A stretch of 54,969 nt of DNA, filler included, from Sphacelaria rigidula (lineage: Eukaryota), in the NCBI GenBank assembly GCA_964200075.2. It is 6 parts of 6 records of this genome, joined end to end, with 100 filler letters (N's around TTAATTAATTAA, not from the genome) between each part and the next. Parts side by side here need not be neighbours in the genome. Positions count along the whole stretch, not along the records: positions 45,892 to 54,969 come from CAXNAA020009358.1; 5 more parts are not named here. One strand, written 5' to 3'. The notes under the pieces were generated by a model that was not told where the DNA came from, searched no databases, and saw only the letters and a list, made by a program, of their open reading frames with translations. Positions 3,905 through 54,969 of the stretch are shown here, in pieces. Position 1 is the stretch's first letter. Each line of letters opens with the position of its first letter. Made by a program: the position numbers and the translations under genes.

Positions 3905-4065
3905 CTGTAGCGGAGTGTGGAAACAAAAACGGAATGGCGCAGATAAAAACAGCAACGCGGAGGGACGGCGTATTTGTTATGATTTTATAAAACCATTCAA
4001 CCACAACGACAACAACAACGACGACGACGACGACAAACGGCGAATCCCGTGGCCAATACACGCAC

Positions 4066-4235
4066 CTGTTCGCAGCGACCAAATGCTTCACTCGTAAGGC
4101 CACCCATCCCTCGCCATTGTGGCCAGCGGGAACGACAACTTCCGGGTCAAATGCCTCAACGCTCAGGCGCCTTTTGCTAAAGTGGGTGGCTGGGCAAGGC
4201 TCGGCGGCGGCGCTCGATCTTGTTCCGGTGACGTC
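4066..4235 (-). CDS. VPS13: VPS13-like exon (...AFDPEVVVPAGHNGEGWVALRVKHLVAAN)
   Basis: ttttgcag| acceptor and AACAG|gtgcgt donor; phase 0/2; P-x-V-V-V-P ... L-x-x-x-N motif typical of VPS13 repeats. Confidence 0.75.
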
Positions 4236-5264
4236 CTGCAAAAGCACGAAAATGAAAAAAGGTGTGACAGAGGTGTCTGGTTGAGCGAGTAGATCCTCAC
4301 GGTCTTTGTTTGTCGACAGTAACGTGTTCATTGTAGCTTGACAATTTTGTGGGAAACGAGAGCGTCCCTGTGATGGCCAGGCCAATCGAGCCTGGCCAAG
4401 ATGTTGACAGCTATTACCTTTGGGGTGTACTTTTCGAATAGTCTCGCCGGTCGCCCACCAAAGTTACGTGCAGGGGGGGGGGGGGGGGGGGGGGGGGCGT
4501 ACTCATTTGTTGCTCCTTGGTCGTTTGACCATTGACTACGCATCCCTTCCGAGACGGAGCATGTGGGGGGGGGGGACTTTGCCGGCTTCGATTCCAGGTG
4601 ATCCATACCAGGTAGGAAACACCTTGGACTGAAAACAAACAAATAACCTTACAAAGAAAGTGTCTGAACCATTTTCATTAACTAGACCTTGCGCCAAATC
4701 CCGTGGCTTTAGCTGACGAATAGCTCGAATTTGGTTCTTCGCCTTCCCATCATATACCCCAGTAACAGGAAGAAAAAAAAAACATGTGATACGATACGTT
4801 GTTGAATCTGGACTGAAATATTCAGACCCGCCTCTCTCGCACAAATATCGTGCGATCAATAACCTCGGAGTGGTGCTGGATCTAAACCACGCAAGGCATG
4901 GCATGAACGGCATCATACCACAGGCCAACGGAACGATAACACGGGTAAGCACAACACCTGACGCATTTGAATGACCTGTCGAAGGAAAAATACTCCCGAA
5001 ACCACCGTCTTGCGAGGACAGAGAGACTCCTAAACGTCAAGTATATTTACCCCTTTCAAACTCAAGCACCCCTTATGCCGCAGAACACTCACTGGAGTAT
5101 TATTTGTTACTTCCGCACATCAGTCCAATTTCTCGAACCCGTGGTCACAGAGATAGGCTCGTGTTTCCAATACCTTTCCTGCTATTCCTTACAAGACATA
5201 GAGCCCTCCATCATTTTTTTCGAGACTGCAACACTAACTATGTCATTGACGTTTTTGTGCTTAC

Positions 5265-6397: not shown

Positions 6398-6724
6398 CTG
6401 TTTCGTTTTTCGTTTCGCGCAAGACACGACGCGGATAGGAACGGAACAGGAAAAACTGGGCAATGACCGACAAACCCTCTTCGTGAATAAATAGCCGCTA
6501 GTCTCAATCGAATTCAGTCACCCGACATTTTTCTAACAGTCGGGTACGAAAAACAGTGAATTGCACACCGGGGCTCCGGCAACATTGGGCAACGGGTTGG
6601 CCATGGGCAATGAAGATGAGACGCGACAGCCGTAGGGACTGCAGCACGAGCGGCGAGTATCGCGGGAGCTGCAATACCCGCTTCTCACGCACAAAGAATC
6701 AAAAACATCGAGCTCGTTACCCAC

Positions 6725-8388
6725 CGTGGAGTCCGCCGCTTTCAGTAGCAGCAGCCGCCTGTCGTCAATCTCTTTGTTCAGCCACAGTGACACACGCCGA
6801 ATCTCCACAACGATCACGCTATCGCGCTTACTGTTAACCCTGGCACCCGCACGACCATCCGCCATCGCTGCCGCGCTGTGCCTTCGCTGCTCCGTAACAG
6901 GCAGTTCGGGGCTGGCGAGCAAAGCGGCAGCAGGCACCGATGCCAGAAAACCTCCATCGTGTTGGTCCGCTGCGCTTTCAGCGTTAGCAGTACTTGAGCC
7001 CGCACCCGGCACCTGGGCGGGCGTAGATGTAGCAACAAACGGTGACGTCGCTGTTGCACCCGCAACGGTACTCGCGCGGGCTCCCTCGCTTGTCACGTCC
7101 TCCCTGCCGCCGCCGCCGCCGCCGCTGTCGAGACGTTGTTCCCCCCGCATTCCATATAACCCGTGGGCGAAAATCGAGAGAGCAGCTATCGTTTCGGGGT
7201 TCCAGTTTGCCCATACTCCCGATAGTGATACGATAGTCTTAACGGGGCCGACTGTCCCTGGGTCCGGTATCACATGGGTGACTCTGACTGCTTCCGGCCC
7301 ATCCGGTCCCGTCGCCGCCGCTGCCGGCACCGGTTCGGTGCCCGCGACAGAACCGGCTTGCTTATCCGTATCCCCAACGGACTCCGGTTGTGGGACTGCC
7401 GATAAGCCGGACGGAGGAGGTTTGGACGACAGCATCCACGAGAACTCGTCTCCCGCCTGTTGGTACATGTCTTCCACGTGAAAAGACACCACCTTTAGAA
7501 CGAACTGCGGCGTCTGGTTCTGTGGTTGCCCGGGTGCACTCTGCAACAAGGTGTCTTTCTCTTCCTTCAGATCTTCCCCCCCTGAACACCTCTGATATTC
7601 AACACCTAGCCCATGGATCTCGACCAGCGCAAGGGCCCCCTCGGCAGCACCCCTATGCCCTCCTTCCTCGGTCTGTGTTTTCACGTCTATGTCATCCCGC
7701 CGGCTGCCGCCAACATCAGCAAGACCATCAGCTTCAGCTTTGGCGTCGCGGACCCCGTGCTCCTCGAGTCCACTCTGCTCCCCCTTCGCGGAGATGGAAC
7801 CGCCAGACCCAGAAGAATGCATCGACCCAACATCGTGCACCAAAAGCACCGAAATCGCTGGAGCGCAGATGCGCACTTCGACGGTCAACCCTACTGCCGC
7901 CGCCGTCTGTCGATCGAACTCGCTATAGCTCTCATCATCTTGCTCCGCATCGCGGCCAGCGCCACCGGCATGCGTTCCTTTCCCTTCCACACCCTCGTCG
8001 AAACGCTCCTGTGAAATAATACCGTAAGGGTTGCAAGAATCTGGGGTCGATGGCCGCCTGCGATGTCGCTGGCTGCCGCCGGCGCTATTGCGGCGGCGAG
8101 GAGTTGTACAACCACCTCTCACACCAGCGTTGCCGCTGACGACACTATCCAAGTCTGCCGAATCGAAGCCGAGATCGGTTTCACCTGGGATTTCGGTTAC
8201 TGGCTCCAGCTCGGTGGACAGAACCGTTGCGAGGCGTCTGTCGCGTGCGTCCGTGGCAGCGGAAGGTGAGATAGATGATGCAGTCGTTCCTGTTGCAGCG
8301 AGGAGATGTCGTCGCTGCGTTGGTGAAGTGGTGGAGGTGGAAGTTGAGGCTGTTGATGCCACCACGCCCGATGCTGATCGCTTCAGCT
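6725..8388 (-). CDS. VPS13: Large internal exon of a VPS13-like / bridge-like lipid transfer protein
   Basis: Core of the 622-aa ORF, bounded by acceptor cggcgcag| and donor ACG|gtgggt. Beta-groove-like segments ALALVEIHGLGVEY, FVLKVVSFHVEDMYQQAG, SLSGVWANWNPETIAAL and VEIRRVSLWLNKE are separated by low-complexity loops. Confidence 0.75.
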
Positions 8389-9079
8389 CTGCGCCGGGCA
8401 CAACGCAAAACAGCGCGGGTAGGTAAAAGAACGCGGAACAGAGAAACAGAGAGAGGGGGTACGGGTGCAGCGCTATGCAAAAGTACTGAGCTTTTTCTCA
8501 AGAGAGAAGAAGCCACAATCGCGGTCGTTGCCGCAAAAATCGATCGGAGCAGCATACCACACTCATATGTTTGAGAGGGTTTGCTGTTCTCCCCGTGAGG
8601 AGAAGCCGGCAGATGAGGATGTAGGATGTATTGTCCACTATGGGGGTTCCAGAGCTTCACAAGGACTACGATCCTCGACGAGACGAACGCAGCAAAAAAA
8701 CGCGCTGTTCGAGGCACGATAGTTAGTTAACACAGTTCCTGACGGAGCACACAGTTAAAACTACAGTAGTGAGCGGTCTAACTATTCATTTTGTGGCATT
8801 TTATCATTTTTCGTAATAAGCAATTTTTTGGGGGCTTTTTTCGCTTGCCAACGCTCATCACATTGGGGATCTGAATATATTTTTATCCGCTCCACATCCC
8901 AAGAAAAAAAAAACACGTGTACTCAAGGGCGCCCAAGAAAAAATTTCCTGGACCCACACTCACATTTTTGAATTTGGGGCTGATTGAGGGGGGCGGGGGG
9001 GGGGGGGGGGGGGGGGGGGGGGTTTTTTTTTTTTTTTGGGGTTTTGAAGGGGCCACAAAAAAATTAATATTTTTTTTAA

Positions 9080-9179
9080 NNNNNNNNNNNNNNNNNNNNN
9101 NNNNNNNNNNNNNNNNNNNNNNNTTAATTAATTAANNNNNNNNNNNNNNNNNNNNNNNNNNNNNNNNNNNNNNNNNNNN
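9080..9179. other. Artificial 100-nt spacer 1 (N44-TTAATTAATTAA-N44)
   Basis: Six-frame-stop linker embedded in Ns. Confidence 0.98.
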
Positions 9180-18257: not shown

Positions 18258-18357
18258 NNNNNNNNNNNNNNNNNNNNNNNNNNNNNNNNNNNNNNNNNNN
18301 NTTAATTAATTAANNNNNNNNNNNNNNNNNNNNNNNNNNNNNNNNNNNNNNNNNNNN
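18258..18357. other. Artificial spacer 2
   Basis: Identical to spacer 1, 9178 nt downstream. Confidence 0.98.
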
Positions 18358-27435: not shown

Positions 27436-27535
27436 NNNNNNNNNNNNNNNNNNNNNNNNNNNNNNNNNNNNNNNNNNNNTTAATTAATTAANNNNNNNNN
27501 NNNNNNNNNNNNNNNNNNNNNNNNNNNNNNNNNNN
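27436..27535. other. Artificial spacer 3
   Basis: Identical, a further 9178 nt downstream. Confidence 0.98.
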
Positions 27536-27989: not shown

Positions 27990-30900
27990 AATAGCATCAT
28001 CGCCAAAACTTCGCCAATCGACCAGCGGAGGTGCCGTGCATTGCCAGGTTGGTCTGCAGTTCACAGCGATATGCTCGAGTCGAGCTGATTTGGTAAACTT
28101 GACGAGTTATGGTTGGAGATGCAAGTGCGGGATGTACTGCTGGCCCAGCTCGTACTTCATTTGGAGACAACCTGGTACCCCTACTGACAGTATGATGGTG
28201 TGCTGAGATCAAAGGCATGAGGGACTCGTCCCAGTTACTTTGATCGTCCACCACCAAAATTGACAGCATTTGACATAAATAGTGATTAACCCGCTCCACC
28301 ATCCCATTCCTCTTAGAATGATGGGAGCTGGTGAACCGTTTTACAGCGCCTATCATTTCGTACACCAACCTACACACTGCGGAAGTGAACTCCGACCCCC
28401 AAACCGGCAAGAAAGCGTGCGGATAAATCCATCGTGGCACACAATCCCCCCCTATGATTGCAGCACACTCGGTTGCCGAGCGCTCTTCAGGGATGACAGC
28501 GCAGTAAGCTTCCGCGTGCGTACTGAACAGATCCACCATGAGGAAAATATGACTGTCACCTCTCTACGCTTTAGGCAGAGGGCCTTAAACAGCAAAAGCT
28601 AACATCTGCCCTGGTCGACTGGGTAGTGGCAGCTGAACCAATGGCCACCGCACCGCAAACCGATCAGGTATCTTGGCCTGACATGGGTAGCAGCGCCGAA
28701 TCCAGGATTTCACACTTTCCTTCATGCCTATCCACCAATAATATTGTTGCAGTACAGAGAGGGTCACCTTCCCCTACAGGTGCACTGCTTCTTCGTGCGT
28801 TTGGTCCATCACCCAGGGCCTCAGCGTCAAAGAAACACAGGTTATCACTGGTTCTTCCCCGAGGTATCGCTAAACAAAAAAAACGGATTTCGATACTTCG
28901 ACTCCACTGGCGCGGTGGTCAGCATTTTTACTGGAAGTTCGCTACAGCCCGCCAGTTCTATCGATTCTTCTTGTCTTAACAGAGCCCTCAAATTATTTAC
29001 ATCGATCCCGCCATTCGCTGATTTTTCCTCTCCTTTCGAGGTTACTGTCTTCCCCTGTGAGAGGCACTTGGTAGCCGTTCGAGCGGTCAAGTCAGTTAGT
29101 TGGATTTGCGCCCAGTCACTTGCTGACCTGGCACACAATCGCTCCCCGAAATTTCATGCTTCCGCCGCCTCTAAAGTGGGCGCGGGAGTATTCGAACCGT
29201 CCTCTTCACCCGATCCAGGATCACCATCCGTGATTACAAACCTTTCTGGGCCCGGCGTCTCGTGTAATGAATATTTTCCCACTTGGGTCACGGTGCAGGC
29301 ATGTAAGCACAAACCCGGCTCCCATTGTTGACACACCATATCGGACACACTCGGGGAGAGAAGCCGCGAGTCATCCTTCACCACTTGCAGATCCCTTCCA
29401 GTCTACGCTAGATATCTTTGACTTCAGCTTCTCTTGAATACGTTCCCATCCAACGTCCGTTACCTCTGAAGTTGTCAGCGGTGCAACCGAGTCCGCCCTC
29501 AGCCCACTGTGAAAATTACTCCGGAGAGAAAGTCCATCCAGGCTGGAAGCACGGGGACGAGAGAAAACCGAAGGGAAGCCCATGCAAGCTGGAATGGTGG
29601 CGGGTTCAAAAATCTCGCGGCACCACACCACTGGCGCCGATTAAGTAAACATCCACATCAGCAGGGTCGGAGATTTGGAACCGTACACTTCATCTTCCTC
29701 GCTATCGAATTAAGTGAGCCACGATAACATGTCGGCGTTCGAATCGGACACCCCAGGTTTGTAAACATCTGATAGGTGTAGGCACTGACAAAATCTTGCC
29801 AGCGCTGGACCCTCAGCACTTCCTCGGCAAGACTGAACAAACTTCGCAGAGGTTGATGATCGCTGTAAATTTGGAAAGTAATTCCAAAAGAGCAGTGGAC
29901 GGTTTCTCTGAACAGTCCACACAATAGCACCCGCTTCCACCTCGGTGGCAATCCAGTTGTGCTCGTCAGGCGGTGTGCTGCGGCTCAAAACACGCAGCGG
30001 TCGCCCATCACCGTCGGAATGGCGTTGCTCGACCACCGCAACCCAACCATATTCGCTAGCACCCGTGACCAACATGCAAGGACGACTACCCGACATCGCA
30101 CCAGCGAAATCAGGAACATACCAAACGTTCGAGCCAGATAACTCCCCCAGAGTTTCGCGTACCGTGTTCTCATCTTCCGGCGTGATATGAAGCTCGACAC
30201 CCTTTTCCAACAACCCGTTGGTGGCCTTGGTGCGGGCCGATATTTCGGAAGTGAAATTGCGATAATAACTCACCCCCCCCCATGCCCGGACGCAATTCAC
30301 TGACATTGGTAGGTATCGGCATGAGGCGCAGAGCGTCTACCTTCTTTGAGTCAGGCGAAAATGCGTCATCCAAGATACGGTGGCCAAGAAAACTGACTTC
30401 CCCAGCGCCTAAGTGAGTCTTGTTCGGCGCCAATTCCAGGTTGAATTTGGTGAGGCGCTTCGAAAACGGCGGATAGATCGTTCATATGTTCGGCCCCATT
30501 GTTTTTGAACTTAAAACAATCGTCAGTGTACAACCGGTAACGCACCAGACCTTCACACACCCTAGCCATGACGGATGCAAACCACCCTGGGCTCCCACTA
30601 CATCCCATCGGCATCACCAACCACTCGTACAGCCTAGATTGCGTACACAACGTGGTAAGATGTTGAAATAACCTGACGGAATATCCAGGTAGGTCAATAC
30701 CTTGGCACCCTCGCGGTCGTCCGACAGCTCATCGATGGTAGGAATGGGCAGAACAGGAATGATGATGGCCTCGTTGAGAGTACGATAGTTACCCGTCAAA
30801 CGAGTGCCCCCATATTTATTGTTAACAACCAACAACGGGGAGCTCCAATTGGAATAGGAACGACGCAGGAGCCCAGCCACTAACAAATGTTCAATTTCAA

Positions 30901-34199: not shown

Positions 34200-35800
34200 A
34201 AGTATGGCGAGGTCTGGATCGAGGAAGTATCAAGAGTTTTTTACACCGCATATCTCGACTACATATAGCGATTGTACCTTGAAAATGCGCAAGGAGTTGT
34301 GAGGCATGCTAAAGTGAGCACAGGACAACCCATCCCTACATACATACATCGATGCTTTGAAGGCATGATCGTCGTGCCATAACTCCCGAAGAATGTCTAG
34401 CAGCATGCCGGGTACACCACAACCGGTGGGAAACATAATACTGCGCGGACTGCAGCAGATCTTCGTAGAGTGCTTACAATGTAGCAAAGTGGTGAAACAT
34501 CCGTCAAGGATAGAGCGATGATGGTCAACCAACCGATAGGGACGTTTTACGCTGAAAACCTGACGGTGCAAGCCATGTACCGTGCAGAGGACAGGAGCTG
34601 GTTGCCAGACCCGGCCGAGTCGATATCCACAGCTTTCGTGGACGGGATTTCGCCTCCGGACTCCAAGGCGTATGTCAAAAGCGCAGTCACATATGTAGAC
34701 GGTTGGAAAAATAATTGGACGGTGGTGTTCAACAAGATACTTGATGCCGCCGATCACTCGAAGTTCACTGAGGCGCATGGCCTGCGCGATTCTGCGGTAG
34801 GTGCAGGTGGTGCGCGCCGCAAACAACAACAGCAACAGAAACAGCAGCCGGCTTCGCGAGCGTCGTCTACTCGCGCATGTTACAACTGCGGCGACAACGG
34901 ACACTTGATCAAGGATTGCCCCAAGCCTCGCGCTCAAGGCGCTGCTCAAGGAAATGCGCGAGATTCAACAGGATCTCGCGGCGGTCGTCACAGTGTACAG
35001 GGCCGTGCCCACCGTGGACGTGGCCGCGGCGGCCGCGGTAGCAAGCAATCGGCGGCGGATGATGGCTCCTCCGCAGCTGTTTGTTCCACTACGTCATCAG
35101 GTGGTGACTCTACATCTTCTGGTTTGTCCGTGTCGGGCGGACAGTGTACGTGGAAGATACAAATACTTCGGTGGGGAGTGCTGGAGCGAATAGTTCGCAA
35201 CCCCTCGACCAGGCAGGATCCGTGTCTGGTGCATCTCCTTCTTCTGCGACGGCTGTAGCGGCGCCGTCTGCATATTTGGTGACGTGGTCTGAGTGGACCG
35301 CCGATTCTCAGTTATCGATGCCAAGTACTGGAGCGCAGCCCTGGCGTCGGGCGACTCTTGGTGCCGACCAGGCTTCTTCGACAGGTGTGGTACCTGTTGA
35401 TCGCAACGCAGAATGTTTACGCGTAGATCTTTCCTTGCCTGGTTCCGTAGGGCTGTTCATGGCCCGCGTTATTCTGGATTATGGATCCGCGCTCACGTCA
35501 ATCAGTGTGAGGTTACCAGAACAAATGTCTCGGGAGTTTGGCGGCACCCAGCTGCAGATTCCGATCGAAAATGAAGTGCAAACGGCACTGATCGCCACGG
35601 GTGCTTCCGTGACGGTTTCTCATAAAATGGTGCCGATTGCTGTTAGCGTTCGTACGCCGTGGGGGCTGTGGAATTGCAGTCCATCACGTTCGCTGTCATG
35701 CCCGGCAGGGACAACATGGCTGTGTTTAGGATGGCGACGATGAAGGAGCCCGAGATTGGTTTGTATCCTCTGGCGTTGGATACGTTACGCCTGCGTGCTC
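34200..35800 (+). mobile_element. Second LTR retrotransposon remnant: gag with CCHC knuckle plus aspartic protease
   Basis: CYNCGDNGHLIKDC and an RG-rich segment in ORF 34518-35258; ARVILDYGSALTSI (protease D-x-G) in ORF 35144-35743. Confidence 0.8.
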
Positions 35801-36613: not shown

Positions 36614-36713
36614 NNNNNNNNNNNNNNNNNNNNNNNNNNNNNNNNNNNNNNNNNNNNTTAATTAATTAANNNNNNNNNNNNNNNNNNNNNNNNNNNNNNN
36701 NNNNNNNNNNNNN
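36614..36713. other. Artificial spacer 4
   Basis: Identical, a further 9178 nt downstream. Confidence 0.98.
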
Positions 36714-45791: not shown

Positions 45792-45891
45792 NNNNNNNNN
45801 NNNNNNNNNNNNNNNNNNNNNNNNNNNNNNNNNNNTTAATTAATTAANNNNNNNNNNNNNNNNNNNNNNNNNNNNNNNNNNNNNNNNNNNN
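45792..45891. other. Artificial spacer 5
   Basis: Identical, a further 9178 nt downstream. Confidence 0.98.
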
Positions 45892-48806
45892 CTAACTCCA
45901 AATATTGGCCGGCGCATCCGCCTGCAAACGTTCATGCAGCCTCTAGGCTGGTCCAGCTCGTAGGGACACAACATGCCTGTGGTGGTTGCTTTACTGATCT
46001 TGTTTTCTATCGGGTAGCCCGTGGCATCTACGCCCGAGCACAGCCACGGGAGGAGTCGTGTCTAGTTTGCTGCATCGGTGTGTTTGTTTTCGAGGTCTTT
46101 TGTTTATCTCTCTCCTTGTCTCGGTAGCCGGTAGGAAGTGAAAAGGGGTGTGGTTCATTCTTTCTCGCGCACTCCTTTTGGTGGGCGGTGTACTCTTTCG
46201 TGAGTTTTTTTCCACACCAGATGCCGCACATTCATAGTTGCGTTGGGTGCAGATGTGTCCTTGTTTTTCTTGTCGGGAAGGTCTTTCGGCATGAGCAACT
46301 TTTGTGGCCGTAATGCTGCTGTTGTGCTAGTAGGGAAGGACAATGATGAACCTGTGAACAGGATCAATCAAGTCGAATGTGAAAAACGAAAAACATTGGG
46401 TTTAGTTCTGTTGCCCCGAAACCTTACGTGACGTATCCTATCGAAAACCCTCGAAACAAAGGTCCTCGTCCGTTTTGTGCTTCCATTGGTTCCTCGAACG
46501 GCAAGCGTAGCACCTTACGAACGGACGGTCGTCAGTAGTGCCAGAATCGGTACTACTGAGGTATTCAGAGCCCTCAATTGCACCTGTTTCGGCACTTTTC
46601 GGAGTAGTGCCGGGCTCTCTGAGAAGTGCCGGTGTCCGTGGTGGGCACATACCGGCACTACTCAGAGCCTCCCACTGTATTTCATTTTGGTTGAGAAGAG
46701 GGTGAGTCGATCCACTTTCGTCCATCGCTCTTTTTTGTTGGCGTAAGAAGTAGTGGAGTCAACCGCTGTCCAGCCGACACGGTGCCCTTTTTCTATCCCT
46801 AGTGGCCGAATATAACACACAGGAGAGATGGGAAAATAGTAAGATACTCACCAGTCCAGAACAACTTGCCCAAGTATTTGATGCGGGAAGGTATTGTTCT
46901 GCTCTGTCGTATATGTTGGTAAATCATTCAGCATGGATGAGCATGTTCTTTGTGCTCGCTTGCTCGTTGAAATAAACGGAGCGCACGCTTCACCAGTGAG
47001 CGTGACCGACGCAGTGTGTCCGTCCGACTATCAATGCTGTAGTGCGTCCAGTAATTGTTTGATCCTCTTCTGTCTTGCGCTTGCTGCGCATATAGCGTGT
47101 ATGCCCTGTGATTACCGTACGGCGTAGTAGTATGTTGTGTACTCACCACTATATAGTCAGTTTGTTCATTTCCATTATATTTCAGTTCATGGGCAGCACA
47201 GGATACACGCGCCGACGTCACATAGTACCCAGTCAAGCATGATGTATGTGGCAATGATGTATAGTCTTATCAATGCAGCTTATGAACATCACCGATAGCC
47301 ACAACATAGCACAGCTCAGTGGCAGATTCGTATTATCCCGACAAAAAACATTGTGTGCCTTTGTGTACGCAACCTCTTGTAAAATATCTTGTACAATCAG
47401 GAGTTCTGCTTAGTACAAACGGGTTGTTGCACGGACCAAATAGTTCCTGTCCACGCCACAGCGCAGCTGACTTTAATGGACATCACACACCCGACGCACA
47501 GACCGTGTTCCGATAGTGAATCTCGGAGTGGCTTGTCCATGCACCCGCAGATGCCTTGGCACGCCGGCGCGCACCTGCTGAACCTTTTCCTGCCGATAGC
47601 GATAAAGAACCGTGTTCCTGCAGTGCGTCTCGGCGTTGTCGTAGCATATGGTGCCATGTAGGCGGAGTGTGCATCTGAACGATGATAACAGATGTTGTCG
47701 CTGTAATACTCTGAAATTCAACGTCACTGTATAGTTTCTGTTTCAGTTCTGGTCTCCACCACAGCGGCAAGTCTTCCAACATTCTAGGAGGAACCATAAG
47801 TTCTACAAAGAGCGGACGTATCCGTGGCACAAGTCAAACACTGCTGAAACGTTCACAGAAGCAGCAGAGTGATGCTGATAGCACTGAATCACCTGGGTAA
47901 GCTTTCGCTGAGCGATTTTAGGTCTTGCCACAGCTGACTTGATCGAACAAGTCTCAGCACATCCTTGCCAGTGTGACTTGGATGTGGAGTTTTATACGAA
48001 CCTCGTTCTGTATCGTCACTGTTTTCATGGAGTTCGCAACACAGATCAGCAGCTGATACCATGTAGCGGCTTATACAGCCACCGCAATAACACCTGCGAT
48101 ATATTAGATACACGTCCGCTTTCAAGTCATCCCGTCGAAGAGTTCAACATCGCCGTGACCCATCTTCTGAGCCATGTACAGCCCGTGCATTTTTGCAGGC
48201 GATGTTTACACAAACTTGCCCACCCTCCCCGATACGTGACCGTTCTTTGCTCACCTACGTGTATTGCGTGTGATGCTGCATAGCGATTACTGAATCTTTC
48301 GGTGATGTTGTCTGTCTCTTCAGTTTGCACAACGGTTTTCAGGTGGCTCGTCTTGTCTAACGTACAAGCCCTGGGTTTGGTATTATTGAATACATTAATG
48401 TCAGATATCATTGATACGACCGAGCATGCTCTAGCACTGGCGTTGTGCCTCACCTGTTTTGTGCAATAACCATCCTGTATTTGTCCTACACTAAAACTTC
48501 ATTCGCTCCCGCTCCGTCCCGCATATTTGTGTAGAAGGGTCCCATCCCTTGGAATCATTTTGCGAGTATCTTTGTAATTGTCGGGGTCAGCTTACATGGA
48601 GCGTCGTTTGCGTTGACTGCAGGCGGCTAATGTTTTCCCAGAGTATGTGCCGTAGAAGCAACGCCACTTGTTCTGCAAAGCGTTTCGACTCACTTTCACC
48701 TGTTGCTAACAAGGTATTTTCTGCCGTCTTGGTATTCGTGCTTCCGTGAGCAGTTACTTTCGGGAAAACATGACACGAAGGGCACGGCGGTCGACATAGC
48801 CAAAAA

Positions 48807-51800
48807 GTGTGCATCACGAGAAGCTGCTCCAAGCTGCCATCTCACGGTCTGCAGGGCTACGAATCGGAGTTCTGCTCCAAGCACGCCAGGGTGGAAATGG
48901 TGGAGATGGTGCAGGAGAAGTGCGGCTACGATGGCTGTTCCACGAAGCCGTCGTATGGTTTAGCGGGAGGTAGGATAGCGGAGTTCTGCTTCAAGCATGC
49001 TAGGTCGGGAATGATGAATGTGATGCGCAAGACGTGCGACTACGAGGGCTGCTCAACGCATCCGTCGTACGGTGTGGCGGGAAGTAAAAAGGCGGAGTTC
49101 TGCTCTAAGCATGCCAGGTCGGGAATGGTGGATGTGGTGCGCAAGACGTGCGACTACGAGGGCTGCTCCACGCAGCCGTCGTACGGTGTGGCGGGAATTA
49201 AAAAGGCGGAGTTCTGCTCTAAGCATGCCAGGTCGGGAATGGTGGATGTGGTGCACAAGACGTGCAGCTACGAGGGCTGCTCCACGCATCCGTCGTATGG
49301 TGTGGCGGGAAGTAAGAAGGCAGAGTTCTGCTCCAAGCATGCCGGGTCGGGAATGGTGAATGTGGTCGACAAGAAGTGCGGCCACGAGGGCTGCTCCACG
49401 AGGCCGTCGTATGGTGTGGCAGGAAGTAAAAAGGCGGAGTTCTGCTCCAAGCATGCCGGGTCGGGAATGATGAATGTGGTCGACAAGAAGTGCGGCTACG
49501 AGGGCTGCTCAACGCAGCCGTCTTATGGTGTGGCGGGCAGTAAGAAGGCGGAGTTCTGCTCCAAGCATGCCAGGTCGGGAATGGTAAATGTGATGCGCAA
49601 GAAGTGCGGCCACGAGGGCTGCTCCACGAGGCCGTCGTATGGTGTGGCGGGCAGTAAGAAGGCAGAGTTCTGCTCCAAGCATGCGAGGTCTGGAATGGTG
49701 AATGTGGTGAACAGGAAGTGCGGCTACGAGGGCTGCTCCACGCATCCGTCTTATGGTGTGGTGGGAAGCAAGAAGGCGGAGTTCTGCTCCAAGCATGCTA
49801 GGTCGGAAATGGTGAATGTGGTCGACAAGAAGTGCGGCCACGAGGGCTGCTCAACGCAGCCGTCGTATGGTGTGGCGGGAAGTAAGAAGGCGGAGTTCTG
49901 CTCCAAGCATGCCGGGTCGGGAATGGTGAATGTGGTCGACAAGAAGTGCGGCCACGAGGGCTGCTCCACGAAGCCGTCTCATGGTGTGGCGGGAAGCAAG
50001 AAGGCGGAGTTCTGCTCCAAGCATGCGAGGTCGGGAATGGTGAATGTGGTGCACAGGAAGTGCGGCCACGAGCGCTGCTCCACGCAGTCGTCTTATGGTG
50101 TGGCAGGAAGCACGAAGGCGGAGTTCTGCCCCAAGCATGCGAGGTCGGGAATGGTAGATGTGGTGCGCAAGAAGTGCGACCACGAGGGCTGCTCAACGCA
50201 TCCGTCGTATGGTGTGGCGGGCAGTAAGAAGGCGGAGTTCTGCTCCAAGCATGCCGGGTCGGGAATGGTGGATGTGGTGAACAAGAAGTGCGGCTACGAG
50301 GGGTGCTCCACGAAGCCGTCGTATGGTGTGGCAGGGAGTAAGAAGGCGGAGTTCTGCTCCAAGCATGCCGGGTCGGGAATGGTGGATGTGGTGCACAGGA
50401 AGTGCGGCTACGAGGGCTGCTCCACGCATCCGTCGTATGGTGTGGCGGGAAGTGAGAAGGCGGAGTTCTGCTCCAAGCATGCCGGGTCGGGAATGGTGGA
50501 TGTGGTGAACAGGAAGTGCGGCTACGAGGGCTGCTCCACGCAGCCGTCGTATGGTGTGGCGGGAAGCAAGAAGGCGGAGTTATGCTCCAAGCATGCCAGG
50601 TCGGGAATGATAAACGTGGTGCACAAGACGTGCAGCTACGAGGGCTGCTCCACGACGCCGTCGTATGGTGTGGCGGGCAGTAAGAAGGCGGAGTTCTGCT
50701 CCAAGCATGCCAGGTCGGGAATGGTGAATGTGGTCGACAAGAAGTGCGGCCACGAGGGCTGCTCCACGAGGCCGTCGTATGGTGTGGCGGGAAGTAAGAA
50801 GGCGGAGTTCTGCTCCAAGCATGCCGGGTCGGGAATGGTGAATGTGGTGCGCAAGAAGTGCGGCCACGAGGGCTGCTCAACGAAGCCGTTGTATGGTGTG
50901 GCGGGAAGTAAAAAGGCGAAGTTCTGCTCCAAGCATGCGAGGTCGGGAATGGTGAATGTGGTGCGCAAGAAGTGCGGCCACGAGGGCTGCTCCACGAAGC
51001 CGTCTTATGGTGTGGCGGGAAGTAAGAAGGCGGAGTTCTGCTCCAAGCATGCCAGGTCGGAAATGGTGAATGTGGTTCTAAAGAAGTGCAACCACGAGGG
51101 CTGCTCAACAAAGCCGTCTCATGGTGTGGCGGGCAGTAAGAAGGCGGAGTTCTGCTCCAAGCATGCCGGGTCGGGAATGATGAGTGTGGTCCACAGGAAG
51201 TGCGGCTACGAGGGCTGCTCAACGCATCCGTCGTATGGTGTGGCAGGAAGTAAGAAGGCGGAGTTCTGCTCCAAGCATGCCAGGGCAGGAACGATGAATG
51301 TTGTAAGCGAGACGTGCGGCTACGAGGGCTGCTCAACGAAGCCGTTGTATGGCGTGGCGGGAAGTAAGAAGGCTGAGTTCTGCTCCGAGCATGCGAGGTC
51401 GGCAATGGTGAATGTGGTGGACTGGGCGTGCGGCCACGAAGATTGTTTCGCTAATCCATCGTATGGTGTAGCAGGAAGCGTGAAGGCGGAGTTCTGCCCC
51501 GAGCAAGCGAGGTCGGGAATGGGGAATGTGGTGCACAAAATGTGTGGCTACGAGGGCTGCTCCACGCATCCGTCGCATGGTGTGACGGGGAGTAACTGGG
51601 CGGGGTTCTCCTTCAAGCATTCCAGGGCGGGAATGGTGAACGTGGTTGGCAAGAAGTGCGGTGAAGATGAGTGGTTCAAATTGACTGTCGAGAAAAGGCA
51701 CACCGTTGATGAGGCAGAGATCTGCCGACAACATACCTCTCCACAAAAAATAGCTGCGGCACCCGACACCGCGAAGCTTGAAACTGAGGAGGGTGCCCCC

Positions 51801-52289
51801 GTCCGTAGCCCAACAAAGGATGGTGGACGAAGCGTTGCTGATGTACGAGGAACAAAACGTAAGCGCGCAAGATTCTGGGGTTCTGTTTCAAACGACGGTG
51901 TTGGTGCTCGCCGGAGTGCGTCCGCCGGTGCCAGGCAGTTTGTAACAACAAGAAACCCAGCTTCAAGGGCTGGTGAAATGTCTTCAGAGGCGCGTGCAGG
52001 AGATTGGATGAAGGTAGAGCTGGCAGTCCGTCCTGCTACAGACGATGGCGATAGGGGTAGGGAGGATCGCGAGCAGGCTCGCTGTTCGAGTGGTGACACC
52101 AACGCAGGTCGTCGTAGTAGCGTCAGTTGCACTGGTATGAGTTCGGGGCGGCTTTGTGCCTCGCCCGCTATGGCACGTGAACGCCTAGGCATGTTTCATG
52201 TGGACCTTGAACAGGCGGAGGAGTATTCAAACGTGAAGATTGATCTTGGAGTGTCTGGTCCTTCTCCTCGAGCATACGATACATTGTAG
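48807..52289 (+). CDS. EsV-1-7-family cysteine-rich tandem-repeat protein: 24 x 38-aa CCCH repeats, degenerate cap repeats and a ~190-aa low-complexity tail with NLS-like KRKR
   Basis: Uninterrupted 1160-codon ORF. Repeat consensus CG[YH]EGCSTxPSYGVAGSKKAEFCSKHA[RG]SGMV[ND]VVxKK resembles the EsV-1-7 cysteine-rich motif known from Ectocarpus siliculosus virus-1 and brown algal genes such as IMMEDIATE UPRIGHT (recognised by eye, no search run). The ORF opens on GTG; first in-frame ATG is at 48897; the true 5' end or upstream exon is uncertain. Confidence 0.9.
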   Translation: MCITRSCSKLPSHGLQGYESEFCSKHARVEMVEMVQEKCGYDGCSTKPSYGLAGGRIAEFCFKHARSGMMNVMRKTCDYEGCSTHPSYGVAGSKKAEFCSKHARSGMVDVVRKTCDYEGCSTQPSYGVAGIKKAEFCSKHARSGMVDVVHKTCSYEGCSTHPSYGVAGSKKAEFCSKHAGSGMVNVVDKKCGHEGCSTRPSYGVAGSKKAEFCSKHAGSGMMNVVDKKCGYEGCSTQPSYGVAGSKKAEFCSKHARSGMVNVMRKKCGHEGCSTRPSYGVAGSKKAEFCSKHARSGMVNVVNRKCGYEGCSTHPSYGVVGSKKAEFCSKHARSEMVNVVDKKCGHEGCSTQPSYGVAGSKKAEFCSKHAGSGMVNVVDKKCGHEGCSTKPSHGVAGSKKAEFCSKHARSGMVNVVHRKCGHERCSTQSSYGVAGSTKAEFCPKHARSGMVDVVRKKCDHEGCSTHPSYGVAGSKKAEFCSKHAGSGMVDVVNKKCGYEGCSTKPSYGVAGSKKAEFCSKHAGSGMVDVVHRKCGYEGCSTHPSYGVAGSEKAEFCSKHAGSGMVDVVNRKCGYEGCSTQPSYGVAGSKKAELCSKHARSGMINVVHKTCSYEGCSTTPSYGVAGSKKAEFCSKHARSGMVNVVDKKCGHEGCSTRPSYGVAGSKKAEFCSKHAGSGMVNVVRKKCGHEGCSTKPLYGVAGSKKAKFCSKHARSGMVNVVRKKCGHEGCSTKPSYGVAGSKKAEFCSKHARSEMVNVVLKKCNHEGCSTKPSHGVAGSKKAEFCSKHAGSGMMSVVHRKCGYEGCSTHPSYGVAGSKKAEFCSKHARAGTMNVVSETCGYEGCSTKPLYGVAGSKKAEFCSEHARSAMVNVVDWACGHEDCFANPSYGVAGSVKAEFCPEQARSGMGNVVHKMCGYEGCSTHPSHGVTGSNWAGFSFKHSRAGMVNVVGKKCGEDEWFKLTVEKRHTVDEAEICRQHTSPQKIAAAPDTAKLETEEGAPVRSPTKDGGRSVADVRGTKRKRARFWGSVSNDGVGARRSASAGARQFVTTRNPASRAGEMSSEARAGDWMKVELAVRPATDDGDRGREDREQARCSSGDTNAGRRSSVSCTGMSSGRLCASPAMARERLGMFHVDLEQAEEYSNVKIDLGVSGPSPRAYDTL
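48921..51656 (+). repeat. Coding tandem array, 24 x 114 nt
   Basis: First Cys codon at 48921 and the Cys codon after unit 24 at 51657 are exactly 24 x 114 nt apart, with no net indel in the array. Confidence 0.97.
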
Positions 52290-53192
52290 GTGACGCTCTA
52301 TTCCCTGTACCGGTTCGTTGCTCAAATTGCCCGGCGAGTGTGTTGGCGTGTGCTCGCCTTGTTGATCAGCGGTCCCAGACGACGATTGATGGGCAGGGTT
52401 TGTTTTATTTTATTCATGCGAAGCACTTCGTGGGACTGTGGGGTCCAGGCATCTCAGCGCCACGTTGCACCTGTTTCGTCGAGGTGCAGTTGTCAAACTT
52501 GCGTTCGCCGTGTGCTCTGGTGGAATTCTGCCAAGGGCTGGCCACTAGTGCACACAATGTAGTAGCCGACATCGGATGAACCGTGACATCACTGTTCGAC
52601 CTCCGACTCCAGTTTTTTCAACACTTTTCGACTGGCGCGGTACTTACAACAGCCTCCAACAACTTGTAGCCAGACGGAGTGCCCGGCATTTTCTTGGTGT
52701 AAGTTTAATCGGCTCTCACTTGACCAATGTTTCAAATGTGTTGTTTCTGCCTGTAACAGTGGCGTGTGCTTCCAGCTTAACTTTGGACAATTCTTGAAGA
52801 TGACGCTGTACACTAAAATGAGGTTCAAGCTGAAAACGTTTCTTTTCCACACGTTCAGCGATTGTGCTCAGCTACGTTTTTGTAGGCTTAAAGGCCCCCG
52901 ATCGCGTAGATTTTGTTTTAGAGCGTTTTGCCGACTCTGAGCGTCCAGCGCCGACTGAAATCGTCAATCCCATTTCACAAAGTGAAGTTGCTTTCTGCTG
53001 CGGGTAAAAATTTGACGAAGATTTTTTTTGCGACTTCGTTTTTGTGTCGTGATTCTTGCGATATTTTTTTTGCGTCGTGATTTTTGCGATTGGATGCTTG
53101 CGATGTTTTTTTTGCTAGCTTTCTCTAGTCTAAAACCCATATCGATTTCGGTTTTTTGGGTATAACTTCGTCAAATGGACAACAAACGCATC

Positions 53193-53570
53193 CTGCTCCA
53201 AGGGGCACCTGGACACACAGCAGTTGCCGCTGTCCACCTAGTATGGGTGAGGACCCCCAGCGTTTGGTGCTCATGTACAAGGAAGGGTGATCTTCATCTA
53301 TCTAGTATCATGCTCCGAAACATGCCTGACAAGGGGGCAACACCCCCGTAAAGACAATGGCAACGCTAGCGGATCCTACATCCTGAGAGTCTGCGACAGT
53401 CTGGCAGCCGGCGAGGTGGTTACGGTAGTGTCCTTCTGGCGATGTCAACTTGCAGAGCACTGGAGCAGAGTTTGCAGATGAATATTTCGGCGATTTCGTG
53501 CTCCAAGGGGCACCTGCACACACAGTAGTTGCCGCTGCCATCTGTCACTTCCACACCAAGCGGGGTGAGG
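53193..53570. repeat. Two ~45-bp direct repeats about 307 nt apart
   Basis: tgctccaaggggcacctg.acacacag.agttgccgctg at 53193 and 53500, each followed by gggtgagga. Confidence 0.75.
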
Positions 53571-54104
53571 ATGTACAGTCTATTTTTGAACATATATTAC
53601 AGTGAGTGAAGTGAAGAGTTCAGGAGCCAGCGTTCCAGTATCGGGGTGAAGGGTTGTGAATCGTATTTCTATGGTGGCAACGGCAAAGAATGAGGTACTG
53701 GAGTAAACACGCTAAGATTCCTCTCTCTCTCTCTCTCTCTCTCTCACCACTAATTATTCTAAGGAGTGAGCCTGCGGATTGCTGGGAGGGAATGAGAACA
53801 CCTCACGAGCGCCCGTTCCTTATTCCAATTTTCAAATCGCTTGTTGTCTCAGGTTATTCCAGATTCGACATTAGATTTCTGTGACAGAAGACACTCTCGT
53901 TTTTTTCGGAATACTTTGATAAAACGAGAACTTCTCGAAAAACTGCTCAAACCATGACCCATTATCTGGAGTATAGAGCAGTACACGCAAGACAAGACAG
54001 TTTTGCACTGGTGTATGGATTATATAACACTACCCTAAACGCAAGACAACACGGCAGTTCCGCTGTGTTTTATAGTTTCAGAACCTGAACACGGACCTTC
54101 TGTG

Positions 54105-54190
54105 TGTGTGACCCCGGCTGGTGCGCCCACATATACCAGAGGGTCTACACCGGCATCCAGAAAAGATGGGACGACAACACACACACGCAC
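54105..54190 (+). mobile_element. 5'-truncated SINE tail copy
   Basis: tgtgaccccggctggtgcgcccacatata...ccagaa.agatgggacgacaacacac. Confidence 0.8.
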
Positions 54191-54969
54191 AGTCTACATC
54201 CAAATGCCGCACAGCAGACAGCAGACGACTTGAAGCCTGCCGATGCGGGGGTGGGGGTGTTGCTCTATTGCAGCGGAAGCTTCGAGGCGAGGATACCACC
54301 ATCAAACCCCCAAGATCAAAGGAAAGAGGCGGATGCCCGCAACAGCAGCGGCCCAAAGTGGAGATGACTGACGATTACTGGAAACGGAGCGCACACTACT
54401 GACGGCCCGGAGCGGAAGGAGAAGGAGGAAGAGATCGTTGATCGAGGGTGGGGATGGGGTTATGGGAAGAGACGATCGGCTGCGTGCCACTAGTCGGGGT
54501 GAGCCGTACACTATGTCTGTGTACTGTGCAGGCTATCCAGGTGGCAGCACGAGTAGCGGGAGTGGTCCTGTATCGCATCACTTGTCAACTGTTCAGAGCT
54601 ATAGGGCCTGTGAAGTAGTACTTCTGTACTGCTATCGTCTGTTGCCCGCTGTACATAGTGTACAGTCCGCACAGCAGACAGCAGACGACGGTACTTGTAG
54701 TACGATGATGGTGTGATTTCACAAGTGTCCCTACTTGAGGGTATACGGCCGTGTAGAGTGCTCAGAGCATCCAAATGTCGTTATCTGCCCGGATGCACTG
54801 TGTTCCTGCGCATGGGCTGCGGCGGGTGTGAATGGTTGTCATTACGTAATGCACACTCTCATGACAGGATTGCACTTGAACACCCAGATAATATCCACCA
54901 TCTATCCCCTAGTATAGCCATCGTTTTCTCCCTACTGTCTAGCGCATCAAACGATTCATGCCACCTTTG

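Follow-up and report, generated by a model that had tools for sequence, protein, structure and literature searches.

The EsV-1-7 family (Pfam PF19114, InterPro IPR043822) comprises proteins built from a 38-residue tandem repeat, among them gene 7 of Ectocarpus siliculosus virus 1 (EsV-1) and the Ectocarpus developmental regulator IMMEDIATE UPRIGHT (IMM). It may represent a new class of zinc finger, according to published work, and is missing in animals and land plants; 2018 members, often in tandem gene clusters, are recorded in 31 genomes of brown algae and sister groups, with IMM as the one member studied (10.1101/2024.02.19.579948). It is among the most amplified gene families of brown algae. 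Members are enriched in a developmental co-expression module (10.64898/2026.04.27.720984), a viral origin of the family is discussed in PMC12993054, and a Tc1/mariner transposase of Ectocarpus is reported to have acquired an EsV-1-7 domain at its N terminus (PMC12477816). The family is already known and its ligand is not established; the main text of the EsV-1-7 and PF19114 papers searched describes neither specificity positions nor a nuclease fusion. Here we describe an EsV-1-7 array of the alga Sphacelaria rigidula (GenBank assembly GCA_964200075.2, record CAXNAA020009358.1). It was found in a 54,969-nt stretch of DNA, analysed as a whole and called the window below; all positions count along it.

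Among proteins of this known family, the one encoded here is very large and its repeats are unusually homogenised. A homogenised array shows which residues are kept different from unit to unit, and here these are residues 9 and 36. This leads to a testable proposal: positions 9 and 36, with 11 and 35 in other members, may set specificity, and the ligand may be DNA. In the reading that we favour, and regard as about an even call, the protein would be a nuclear, modular, zinc-based reader of nucleic acid, and most likely of DNA, with 9 and 36 as its specificity positions. The anatomy of the array, the outlying variability of the two sites, the pattern in relatives and the architecture of the fusions are observed; zinc binding, DNA as the ligand, its direct contact with residues 9 and 36 and any code are inferred.

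Variation within the array and among its relatives

Cut into 24 segments of 114 nt, the array gives 24 in-frame units of 38 residues (Table 1), as a first-pass annotation of the same DNA had proposed. Tandem Repeats Finder reports a period of 114 nt over 48865-51661 (24.5 copies, 87% matches, 0% indels). The earlier assignment to EsV-1-7 is borne out by Pfam, which matches EsV_1_7_cys (PF19114) at E = 0 and 1239 bits against a cut-off of 25, in 25 stretches. The 25th of these is a degenerate unit, repeat 0, matched by the hidden Markov model at 48822-48920 (E 1.2e-9), which probably lies 5′ of the start codon. No other EsV-1-7 repeat was found in a six-frame scan of the whole window, and no Pfam domain besides PF19114 is real in the protein: a Phe_ZIP match (42 bits, with no stretch passing alone) and one match below cut-off both lie inside the repeats. 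The zinc-ligand pattern C-x4-C-x16-C-x2-H had been ascribed to every unit; C1, C6, C23 and H26 are all present at exact spacing in 22 of the 24, but the last two units depart from it (Table 1). The same four residues are invariant in 1413 family repeats, a constancy on the basis of which they would bind zinc, probably one ion per module. Mean pairwise identity between units is 78% for amino acids and about 87% for nucleotides, so that to call them near-identical was an overstatement; for units 2-22 without positions 9 and 36, amino-acid identity reaches 86%. The units show no higher-order periodicity, with a mean difference of 13.9-15.5 at lags 1 to 12.

Positions 9 and 36 are real outliers in this array, beyond chance. 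Their residue series are exactly as first written, and the 23 pairs formed across junctions by residue 36 of one unit and residue 9 of the next all match the unit listing. Entropy is 2.27 bits at position 9 and 2.45 bits at position 36, and at most 1.22 bits at all others. Together the two positions account for 19.6% of pairwise amino-acid differences (24% in units 2-22), compared with the 5.3% expected (2/38). The proportion of nonsynonymous differences (pN) is 0.465 at codon 9 and 0.480 at codon 36, or 2.05 and 2.11 times the mean proportion of synonymous differences (pS); for the other 36 codons pN/pS is 0.38. On a tree built from the remaining 108 nt of each unit, codons 9 and 36 take 15 amino-acid steps each, compared with an average of 1.94 and a maximum of 6 for the other 36 (Poisson P ~3e-9), and their states fit this backbone tree no better than shuffled labels. 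Units 2 and 3 have only two backbone-base differences, yet differ at both sites. Entropy, pN relative to mean pS and step counts thus agree with the initial description of both sites as hypervariable within the array. At codon 36 the first two bases vary (CGC, CAC, GAC, AAC, AGC, GGC) and the third is C in 23 of 24 units, which is evidence against a mere mutational hotspot.

A profile of five units retrieved 8830 proteins at E<=0.001 among 1.84 billion representatives. A word-indexed search retrieved 48 relatives, of which the best covers 37% of the query at 51% identity. Of the relatives with a name, the nearest is a partial protein from Sphacelaria rigidula, with 51% identity across its final 471 residues, the tail included. 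In P0081, a partial protein of Sphacelaria rigidula, the repeats vary at position 9 (K, Q and others) and at 35-36 (KY, KD); some of its units are disrupted or no longer have all ligands, and it looks like a decaying or poorly modelled paralogue.

Within 97 proteins of at least six repeats, position 9 has the highest mean entropy (1.91 bits), followed by 11, 7, 29, 35, 24 and 36; it tops the ranking in 16 of these proteins, and position 36 does so in three. Other homogenised arrays (for example P0008, P0058, P0115, P0126 and P0160) vary at 9, 11 and 35/36 on otherwise constant scaffolds. Neighbouring repeats were compared in 669 distinct pairs from 252 proteins (effective number 566). Among the 19 positions exceeding 2.5 bits, the excess identity between neighbours is lowest at 11 (0.07), 9 (0.08), 35 (0.08) and 36 (0.14), and lies between 0.17 and 0.38 at the rest. 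The scaffold is homogenised along arrays; positions 9, 11, 35 and 36 are not. Across the family, 9 and 36 are thus among the variable positions least shared by neighbours, together with 11 and 35.

The residues allowed at these sites are also particular. Over the 1413 repeats, acidic residues (D and E) make up at most 1% at positions 8, 9, 11 and 35, and 17-44% at the other variable positions 7, 25, 28 and 29. Position 9 is R in 26%, Q in 22%, I in 9%, S in 6%, H in 6% and K in 5%, and position 36 is mainly S, N, H or D in relatives. Orthologous repeats were compared in 19 protein pairs (95 repeat pairs), where position 36 obtained the top score, being 0.75 identical between orthologous repeats and 0.25 within a protein. 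An apparent conservation of position 9 between orthologues, seen with five pairs (0.84, with 35, 36 and 9 on top), was dropped with 19 pairs, where position 9 fell to ninth place.

A number of results count against taking 9 and 36 as specificity positions, and some suit a plainer account. In that account they are the least constrained surface sites of a young, fast-expanding array, their alleles shuffled by unequal crossing-over or conversion, with no code, and the gene itself may be decaying or redundant. Linkage connects codon 36 with synonymous variants of codon 35 (permutation P<0.0002), with codon 37 (P 0.03) and with the second codon of the following unit (P 0.008), and a GTC-GAC-AAG-AAG cassette is present five times. 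Variation at codon 36 therefore consists in part of a few alleles spread by duplication or conversion, which move as cassettes with their synonymous neighbours, so that 15 steps overcount the independent mutations at this codon. The minimum is 5-6 mutations per site (distinct codons minus one), and codon 18 needs as many; the step tree, being built from backbone sites, also favours those sites. Codon 9 shows no linkage to neighbouring codons. Since single-codon pS reaches 0.92, above the pN of either site, a pN/pS of about 2 is suggestive of positive selection and no proof of it. Identity of position 9 between orthologous repeats is 0.57 (mean 0.776), a fast change that weak constraint would equally explain: position 9 is either often retargeted or weakly constrained in identity, and clearly restricted in residue type. 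The zinc ligands lost in the terminal units, the lack of an in-frame ATG before repeat 0 and the hundreds of family members per brown-alga genome (10.1101/2024.02.19.579948) also suit relaxed constraint. However, a free site should sample acidic, proline and hydrophobic residues, whereas position 9 is 1% acidic and 48% R or Q in 1376 repeats. Arrays of separate origin in distantly related viruses and algae single out these positions as well, and weak constraint is at odds with the identity of position 36 between orthologues, the constant third base of its codon, the purifying selection on the scaffold (0.38) and the coverage of the exon in RNA-like runs. We therefore give this account only a small chance of being correct.

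A paired two-residue code, as originally put forward, finds no footing in these data, and this too bears on the reading of 9 and 36 as specificity positions. In the array, position 9 is not associated with position 36 of the same unit (P 0.75), nor position 36 with position 9 of the next unit (P 0.49), nor either site with the same site in the next unit (P 0.49-0.75); in relatives, covariation of 36 with the following 9 ranks 167th of 2628. A code of one base per repeat read by two residues is speculation, as are a TALE-like superhelix and a KRAB-ZFP-like role against transposons or viruses. Overall, the first interpretation is partly supported.

A nuclease-like domain in viral relatives and the ligand of the array

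Three repeats were modelled with AlphaFold2 from an 82-row alignment, with a predicted local distance difference test score (pLDDT) of 87.4 and a predicted template modelling score (pTM) of 0.51. By DSSP, the modelled unit has short strands at residues 12-14 and 31-33 and no helix of at least four residues. A five-repeat model from a 15-row alignment (pLDDT 57.1) was unusable. The three-repeat model superposes on the EsV-1-7 protein of Ectocarpus siliculosus virus 1 (BFVD Q8QNQ2) with a template modelling score (TM) of 0.89, a root-mean-square deviation of 1.2, 51% identity and E 3.6e-12, both structures being predictions. The 26 BFVD matches at E<=0.001 are this EsV-1-7 and 25 other giant-virus proteins. 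Among solved folds, a Foldseek search of the PDB returned 12 rows at E<=10, the best being nidovirus helicases, and none at E<=0.001; a profile search of PDB sequences (A1) returned one row (E 2).

A conserved C-terminal domain of about 200 residues, unmodelled by Pfam, is present in 132 of 189 sampled relatives. It contains two CxxC pairs (zinc ribbon), followed by the motifs RPD..ExDExQH..CExxRM..FIRxNPD..YLFYD, and an alignment of 30 fragments keeps R, D, E, D, E, H, E, R, R, N and P throughout. Weak Pfam matches to Hjc, below cut-off, were obtained with two of ten proteins (E 0.011 and 0.09). At E<=1, the 30 C-terminal fragments matched DUF559 (3), NERD (3), DUF2726 (2), Hjc (1) and HSDR_N_2 (1), all of which we take to belong to the PD-(D/E)xK clan. 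One of eight proteins matched a PHROG annotated 'homing endonuclease' (E 8e-4). The Atlas neighbours of the domain include some from Nucleocytoviricota at 0.90-0.92 and a DUF559-bearing cluster at 0.83, and depositor names among the 26 significant BFVD matches include 'Endonuclease' (4) and 'DNA primase' (1). From its motifs and these weak but mutually consistent matches, the viral C-terminal domain appears to resemble PD-(D/E)xK nucleases; it deserves a family description of its own.

Relatives of the domain are encoded by 513 stretches in IMG/VR; of the 80 loci listed, many are on contigs with GVMAG names. The domain match falls at about 4001-4630 in most of these loci (L001-L080), and 3-15 EsV-1-7 repeats precede it in 59 of 75 readable open reading frames (ORFs). 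Two proteins, P0019 and P0020, combine HA (PF03457) repeats, seven EsV-1-7 repeats and the nuclease-like domain; the HA repeats were identified by a Pfam scan of P0019 (six stretches, E 9e-23) and by precomputed annotation for P0020.

The case for a nuclease is made up of weak Pfam matches (E 0.002-0.09), one weak PHROG match and motif resemblance, and further results reduce what it can lend to the favoured reading. NCBIfam returned nothing relevant for ten viral relatives. PDB profile searches with the domain found no nuclease: A3 gave three Cas10 rows (E 0.39) over the CxxC stretch, and A4, against PDB sequences, gave 14 rows (E 0.2-4), all but one in the CxxC zinc-ribbon part and none a nuclease. 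The algal protein (P0001) has neither the zinc ribbon nor the RPD..FIRxNPD motifs, and its tail is without a Pfam match. Because it lacks the domain, the nuclease argument reaches it by array homology only.

The domain layout is the best pointer to DNA as the ligand, because an enzyme that targets DNA would be laid out in this way, with variable zinc modules joined to a nuclease. Nucleic acid as the ligand, with DNA the likeliest, is also suggested by the acid-free positions 8, 9, 11 and 35, by the basicity of the array (isoelectric point 9.27; 137 K+R compared with 68 D+E in 912 residues) and by the reported transposase fusion.

Two other ligands have to be weighed against DNA. The array could be a scaffold for proteins, or for some other partner that is not a nucleic acid, like ankyrin, leucine-rich and tetratricopeptide repeats, with 9 and 36 recognising, say, partners from viruses or from development. 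Repeats that bind proteins typically also confine diversity to a few positions of a conserved scaffold, the model has no match among known DNA-binding folds, the variation at 9 is independent of that at 36, and the fast turnover of position 9 between orthologues resembles that of arms-race surfaces. As a lead only, Zf_WRKY19 (63%) is the annotation of the first Atlas cluster with a Pfam family near the viral domain. However, acid-poor positions 8, 9, 11 and 35 in a strongly basic array fit a polyanionic ligand better, and both the dominant viral architecture, an array with a nuclease-like domain, and the transposase fusion (PMC12477816) speak against a protein partner, which we consider unlikely.

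The basic array and its acid-free variable positions would suit RNA equally. The array would then read single-stranded RNA module by module, like PUF and PPR proteins, and act after transcription. CCCH-type zinc modules are often RNA binders, and 24 units, many for a DNA site, are seen in RNA-reading arrays such as PPR. But the C-x4-C-x16-C-x2-H spacing is unlike the C-x8-C-x5-C-x3-H of RNA-binding CCCH fingers, and the viral domain resembles PD-(D/E)xK nucleases, a clan that we take to consist mainly of DNA enzymes. With the depositor names 'Endonuclease' and 'DNA primase', and with a transposase fusion that points to DNA (PMC12477816), RNA reading appears quite improbable.

We return to the favoured reading of a modular DNA array. 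Its 24 modules would each fold, probably around one zinc ion held by C1, C6, C23 and H26, and purifying selection and exchange between repeats keep the scaffold similar. Residue 9 is located directly behind the C-x4-C knuckle and residue 36 in the linker that leads to the next knuckle. Both are kept different from unit to unit, as are 11 and 35 in other members, and the variable residues would form the ligand-contacting face that sets specificity. In this way the modules may together read a long nucleic-acid target, with double-stranded DNA the most likely. Arrays of this kind in giant viruses appear to direct a PD-(D/E)xK-like nuclease at their C terminus, whereas those of brown algae appear to have been kept without the nuclease, as chromatin or transcription factors.

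A broader version, which we put forward as tentative and on balance doubtful, is that EsV-1-7 repeats constitute an unrecognised zinc-based class of DNA recognition with a few-residue code. Viruses would use it for nuclease targeting, algae would have domesticated nuclease-free arrays by the hundreds as transcription or chromatin factors, and the 24-unit protein described here would read a very long or repeated DNA target. If this were true, the viral fusions would be natural counterparts of zinc-finger nucleases and of transcription activator-like effector (TALE) nucleases, acting as homing or host-targeting endonucleases. Should the narrower proposal hold, with specificity set by 9 and 36 (11 and 35 in other members) and DNA as the ligand, it would account for the rise of a repeat of viral origin to a large regulatory family in a separate multicellular lineage. 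It would also bring to light that nucleases guided by arrays are widespread in giant viruses, and would provide a new protein scaffold for programmable DNA recognition. If it fails, the locus is no more than a large example of a family already known.

Gene model and surroundings

The window consists of six pieces of 9,078-9,079 bases joined by N44-TTAATTAATTAA-N44 spacers, which carry stops in all frames. The true genomic context of the array is 45892-54969 only, and features of different pieces may not be neighbours.

Table 1. Features of the array locus, and the spacers between the pieces of the window.
Feature	Position	Strand	Remark
Probable 3′ splice site: pyrimidine-rich tract, then cag	48751..48753	+	array exon starts ~48751-48754
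Open frame, stop to stop, 1171 codons + stop	48774..52289	+	upstream TGA 48771-48773
Degenerate repeat 0, 37 residues, one residue fewer between C6 and C23	48810..48920	+	25th Pfam stretch
First in-frame ATG, context gaaATGg	48897..48899	+	putative start codon
24 tandem 114-nt (38-residue) EsV-1-7 repeats, C-x4-C-x16-C-x2-H	48921..51656	+	
Codon 9	48945..48947 (unit 1), every 114 nt to 51567-51569	+	K7 H7 Q5 R3 T1 N1
Codon 36	49026..49028 (unit 1), every 114 nt to 51648-51650	+	R6 H6 D6 N3 L S G
Units 23 and 24, most diverged	51429..51656	+	one zinc ligand lost each (CCCQ, CCSH)
C-terminal tail, 210 residues, without Pfam domain	51657..52286	+	
KRKRAR, nuclear-localisation-signal-like pattern	51855..51872	+	
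Stop codon TAG	52287..52289	+	
Spacers	9080-9179, 18258-18357, 27436-27535, 36614-36713, 45792-45891		

The gene model, with a 5′ exon outside the window and a start at 48897, is inferred. Translation from this ATG predicts a protein of 1130 residues, in which the eight residues MVEMVQEK are followed by the 24 units. A splice acceptor at about 48751, with the upstream exon outside the window, is probable. The 3′ flank was found in nine public runs from three studies, four of them guessed, not recorded, as RNA, and four runs were compared with 45900-48925. Contigs of runs X4 (280 nt) and X6 (265 nt) have 0 differences to 48751-48851; upstream of 48751 they continue with 179 and 164 nt, respectively, of unlike sequence. 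The DNA-like run X1 is continuous through the splice-site stretch and covers the whole stretch. In the guessed-RNA runs, depth is 0-3.5 over 46708-48727 and 32-46 at 48728-48828. Two points weaken this part of the case: the RNA nature of the runs is a guess, and a 30-letter consensus of the loose ends, which should represent the upstream exon, has 0 matches in the window at <=3 mismatches.

The gene looks live, because the scaffold pN/pS is 0.38, 1171 codons are open, the exon is covered by guessed-RNA contigs and the KRKRAR pattern is shared. KRKRAR may be a nuclear-localisation signal, by pattern only; KRKRA occurs at the same place in the tail of the Sphacelaria relative, and about half of the tail is conserved in a Sphacelaria rigidula protein. 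The database protein P0072 (484 residues) is the C-terminal part of the array frame, as called on the 9,078-base piece. The stop codon lies directly 5′ of GTGACG (stretch 52287-52295), which is splice-donor-like, and a 3′ intron is possible.

Other observations concern the surroundings. The segment 45900-46707 is high-copy in run X1, with a summed depth of 2,000-167,000 compared with about 1-110 across most of 46708-48828, and has a number of joints and loose ends. A repeat or a piece of a transposon, 5′ of the gene, is its probable identity. A short tandem repeat at 53021-53115, with periods of 14, 28 and 42 and T-rich, GCGA-containing units, lies about 730 nt downstream of the stop codon. 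Long antisense or off-frame ORFs of up to 535 residues occur inside the array (for example 49798-51405 and 49053-49508, both on the minus strand); they are by-products and not genes, because the repeat unit has no stops in those frames. Retrotransposon fragments at 29710-30336 (minus strand) and 34485-35258 (plus strand), with matches to RT_RNaseH (E 9e-12) and a gag-type zf-CCHC (E 5e-7), are uninformative on the neighbourhood of the gene because they lie in other pieces. A 654-codon open frame without Pfam match occupies 6533-8497 on the minus strand, in the first piece.

Comparison with known repeat systems

PUF and PPR proteins resemble the array in being modular; in them, each repeat selects its base through two or three residues. 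Their repeats are helical, contain no metal and read single-stranded RNA, and they have no likeness to the array in sequence or model.

The array had first been described as TALE-like, which is apt for its layout. Like the TALEs of Xanthomonas and Ralstonia, it is a long array of units of 34-38 residues with two-position variation in non-periodic order. TALE repeats, however, are two-helix hairpins of 33-35 residues without metal, and their variable residues, 12 and 13, are adjacent. Here the 38-residue units have short strands, four zinc ligands and no helical hairpins, and the variable residues are 27 apart (11 across the junction) without covariation. Unit identity, at 78%, is lower than in TALEs, and there is no sequence or fold match. 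TALE membership was therefore rejected, given the missing helix, the variable positions 9 and 36 and the absence of a TALE Pfam match.

Arrays of C2H2 fingers, including KRAB-ZFPs, have in common with this one tandem zinc modules and a repertoire of specificity residues (R, Q, H, K, N, D, S and T); with the family at large they share rapid diversification of contact residues while the scaffold stays fixed, and natural or engineered nuclease fusions. The C2H2 spacing (C-x2-4-C-x12-H-x3-5-H) differs, the model has no beta-beta-alpha fold and zf-C2H2 was not matched, so the array was not placed in this class. Membership of the KRAB-ZFPs was likewise rejected: no KRAB or other repressor or effector domain is present, PF19114 being the only real Pfam match.

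The closest likeness is to the EsV-1-7 family itself, with which the array shares the repeat and, as far as two predictions can be compared, the fold (TM 0.89). No other Pfam domain is present, as in all Ectocarpus members (10.64898/2026.04.27.720984), and IMM has five repeats (10.1101/2024.02.19.579948). The array has 24-25 units compared with a maximum of 15 among 252 sampled proteins, a sample limited by length and rank, and its units are unusually homogenised, with variation concentrated at two positions. The array-nuclease proteins of giant viruses (for example of cedratvirus, pithovirus and faunusvirus, some deposited as 'Endonuclease') have the same repeat with variable positions 9, 11 and 35/36. 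They join 3-15 repeats to a double CxxC and a putative nuclease domain, where the algal protein carries its 210-residue tail with KRKRAR.

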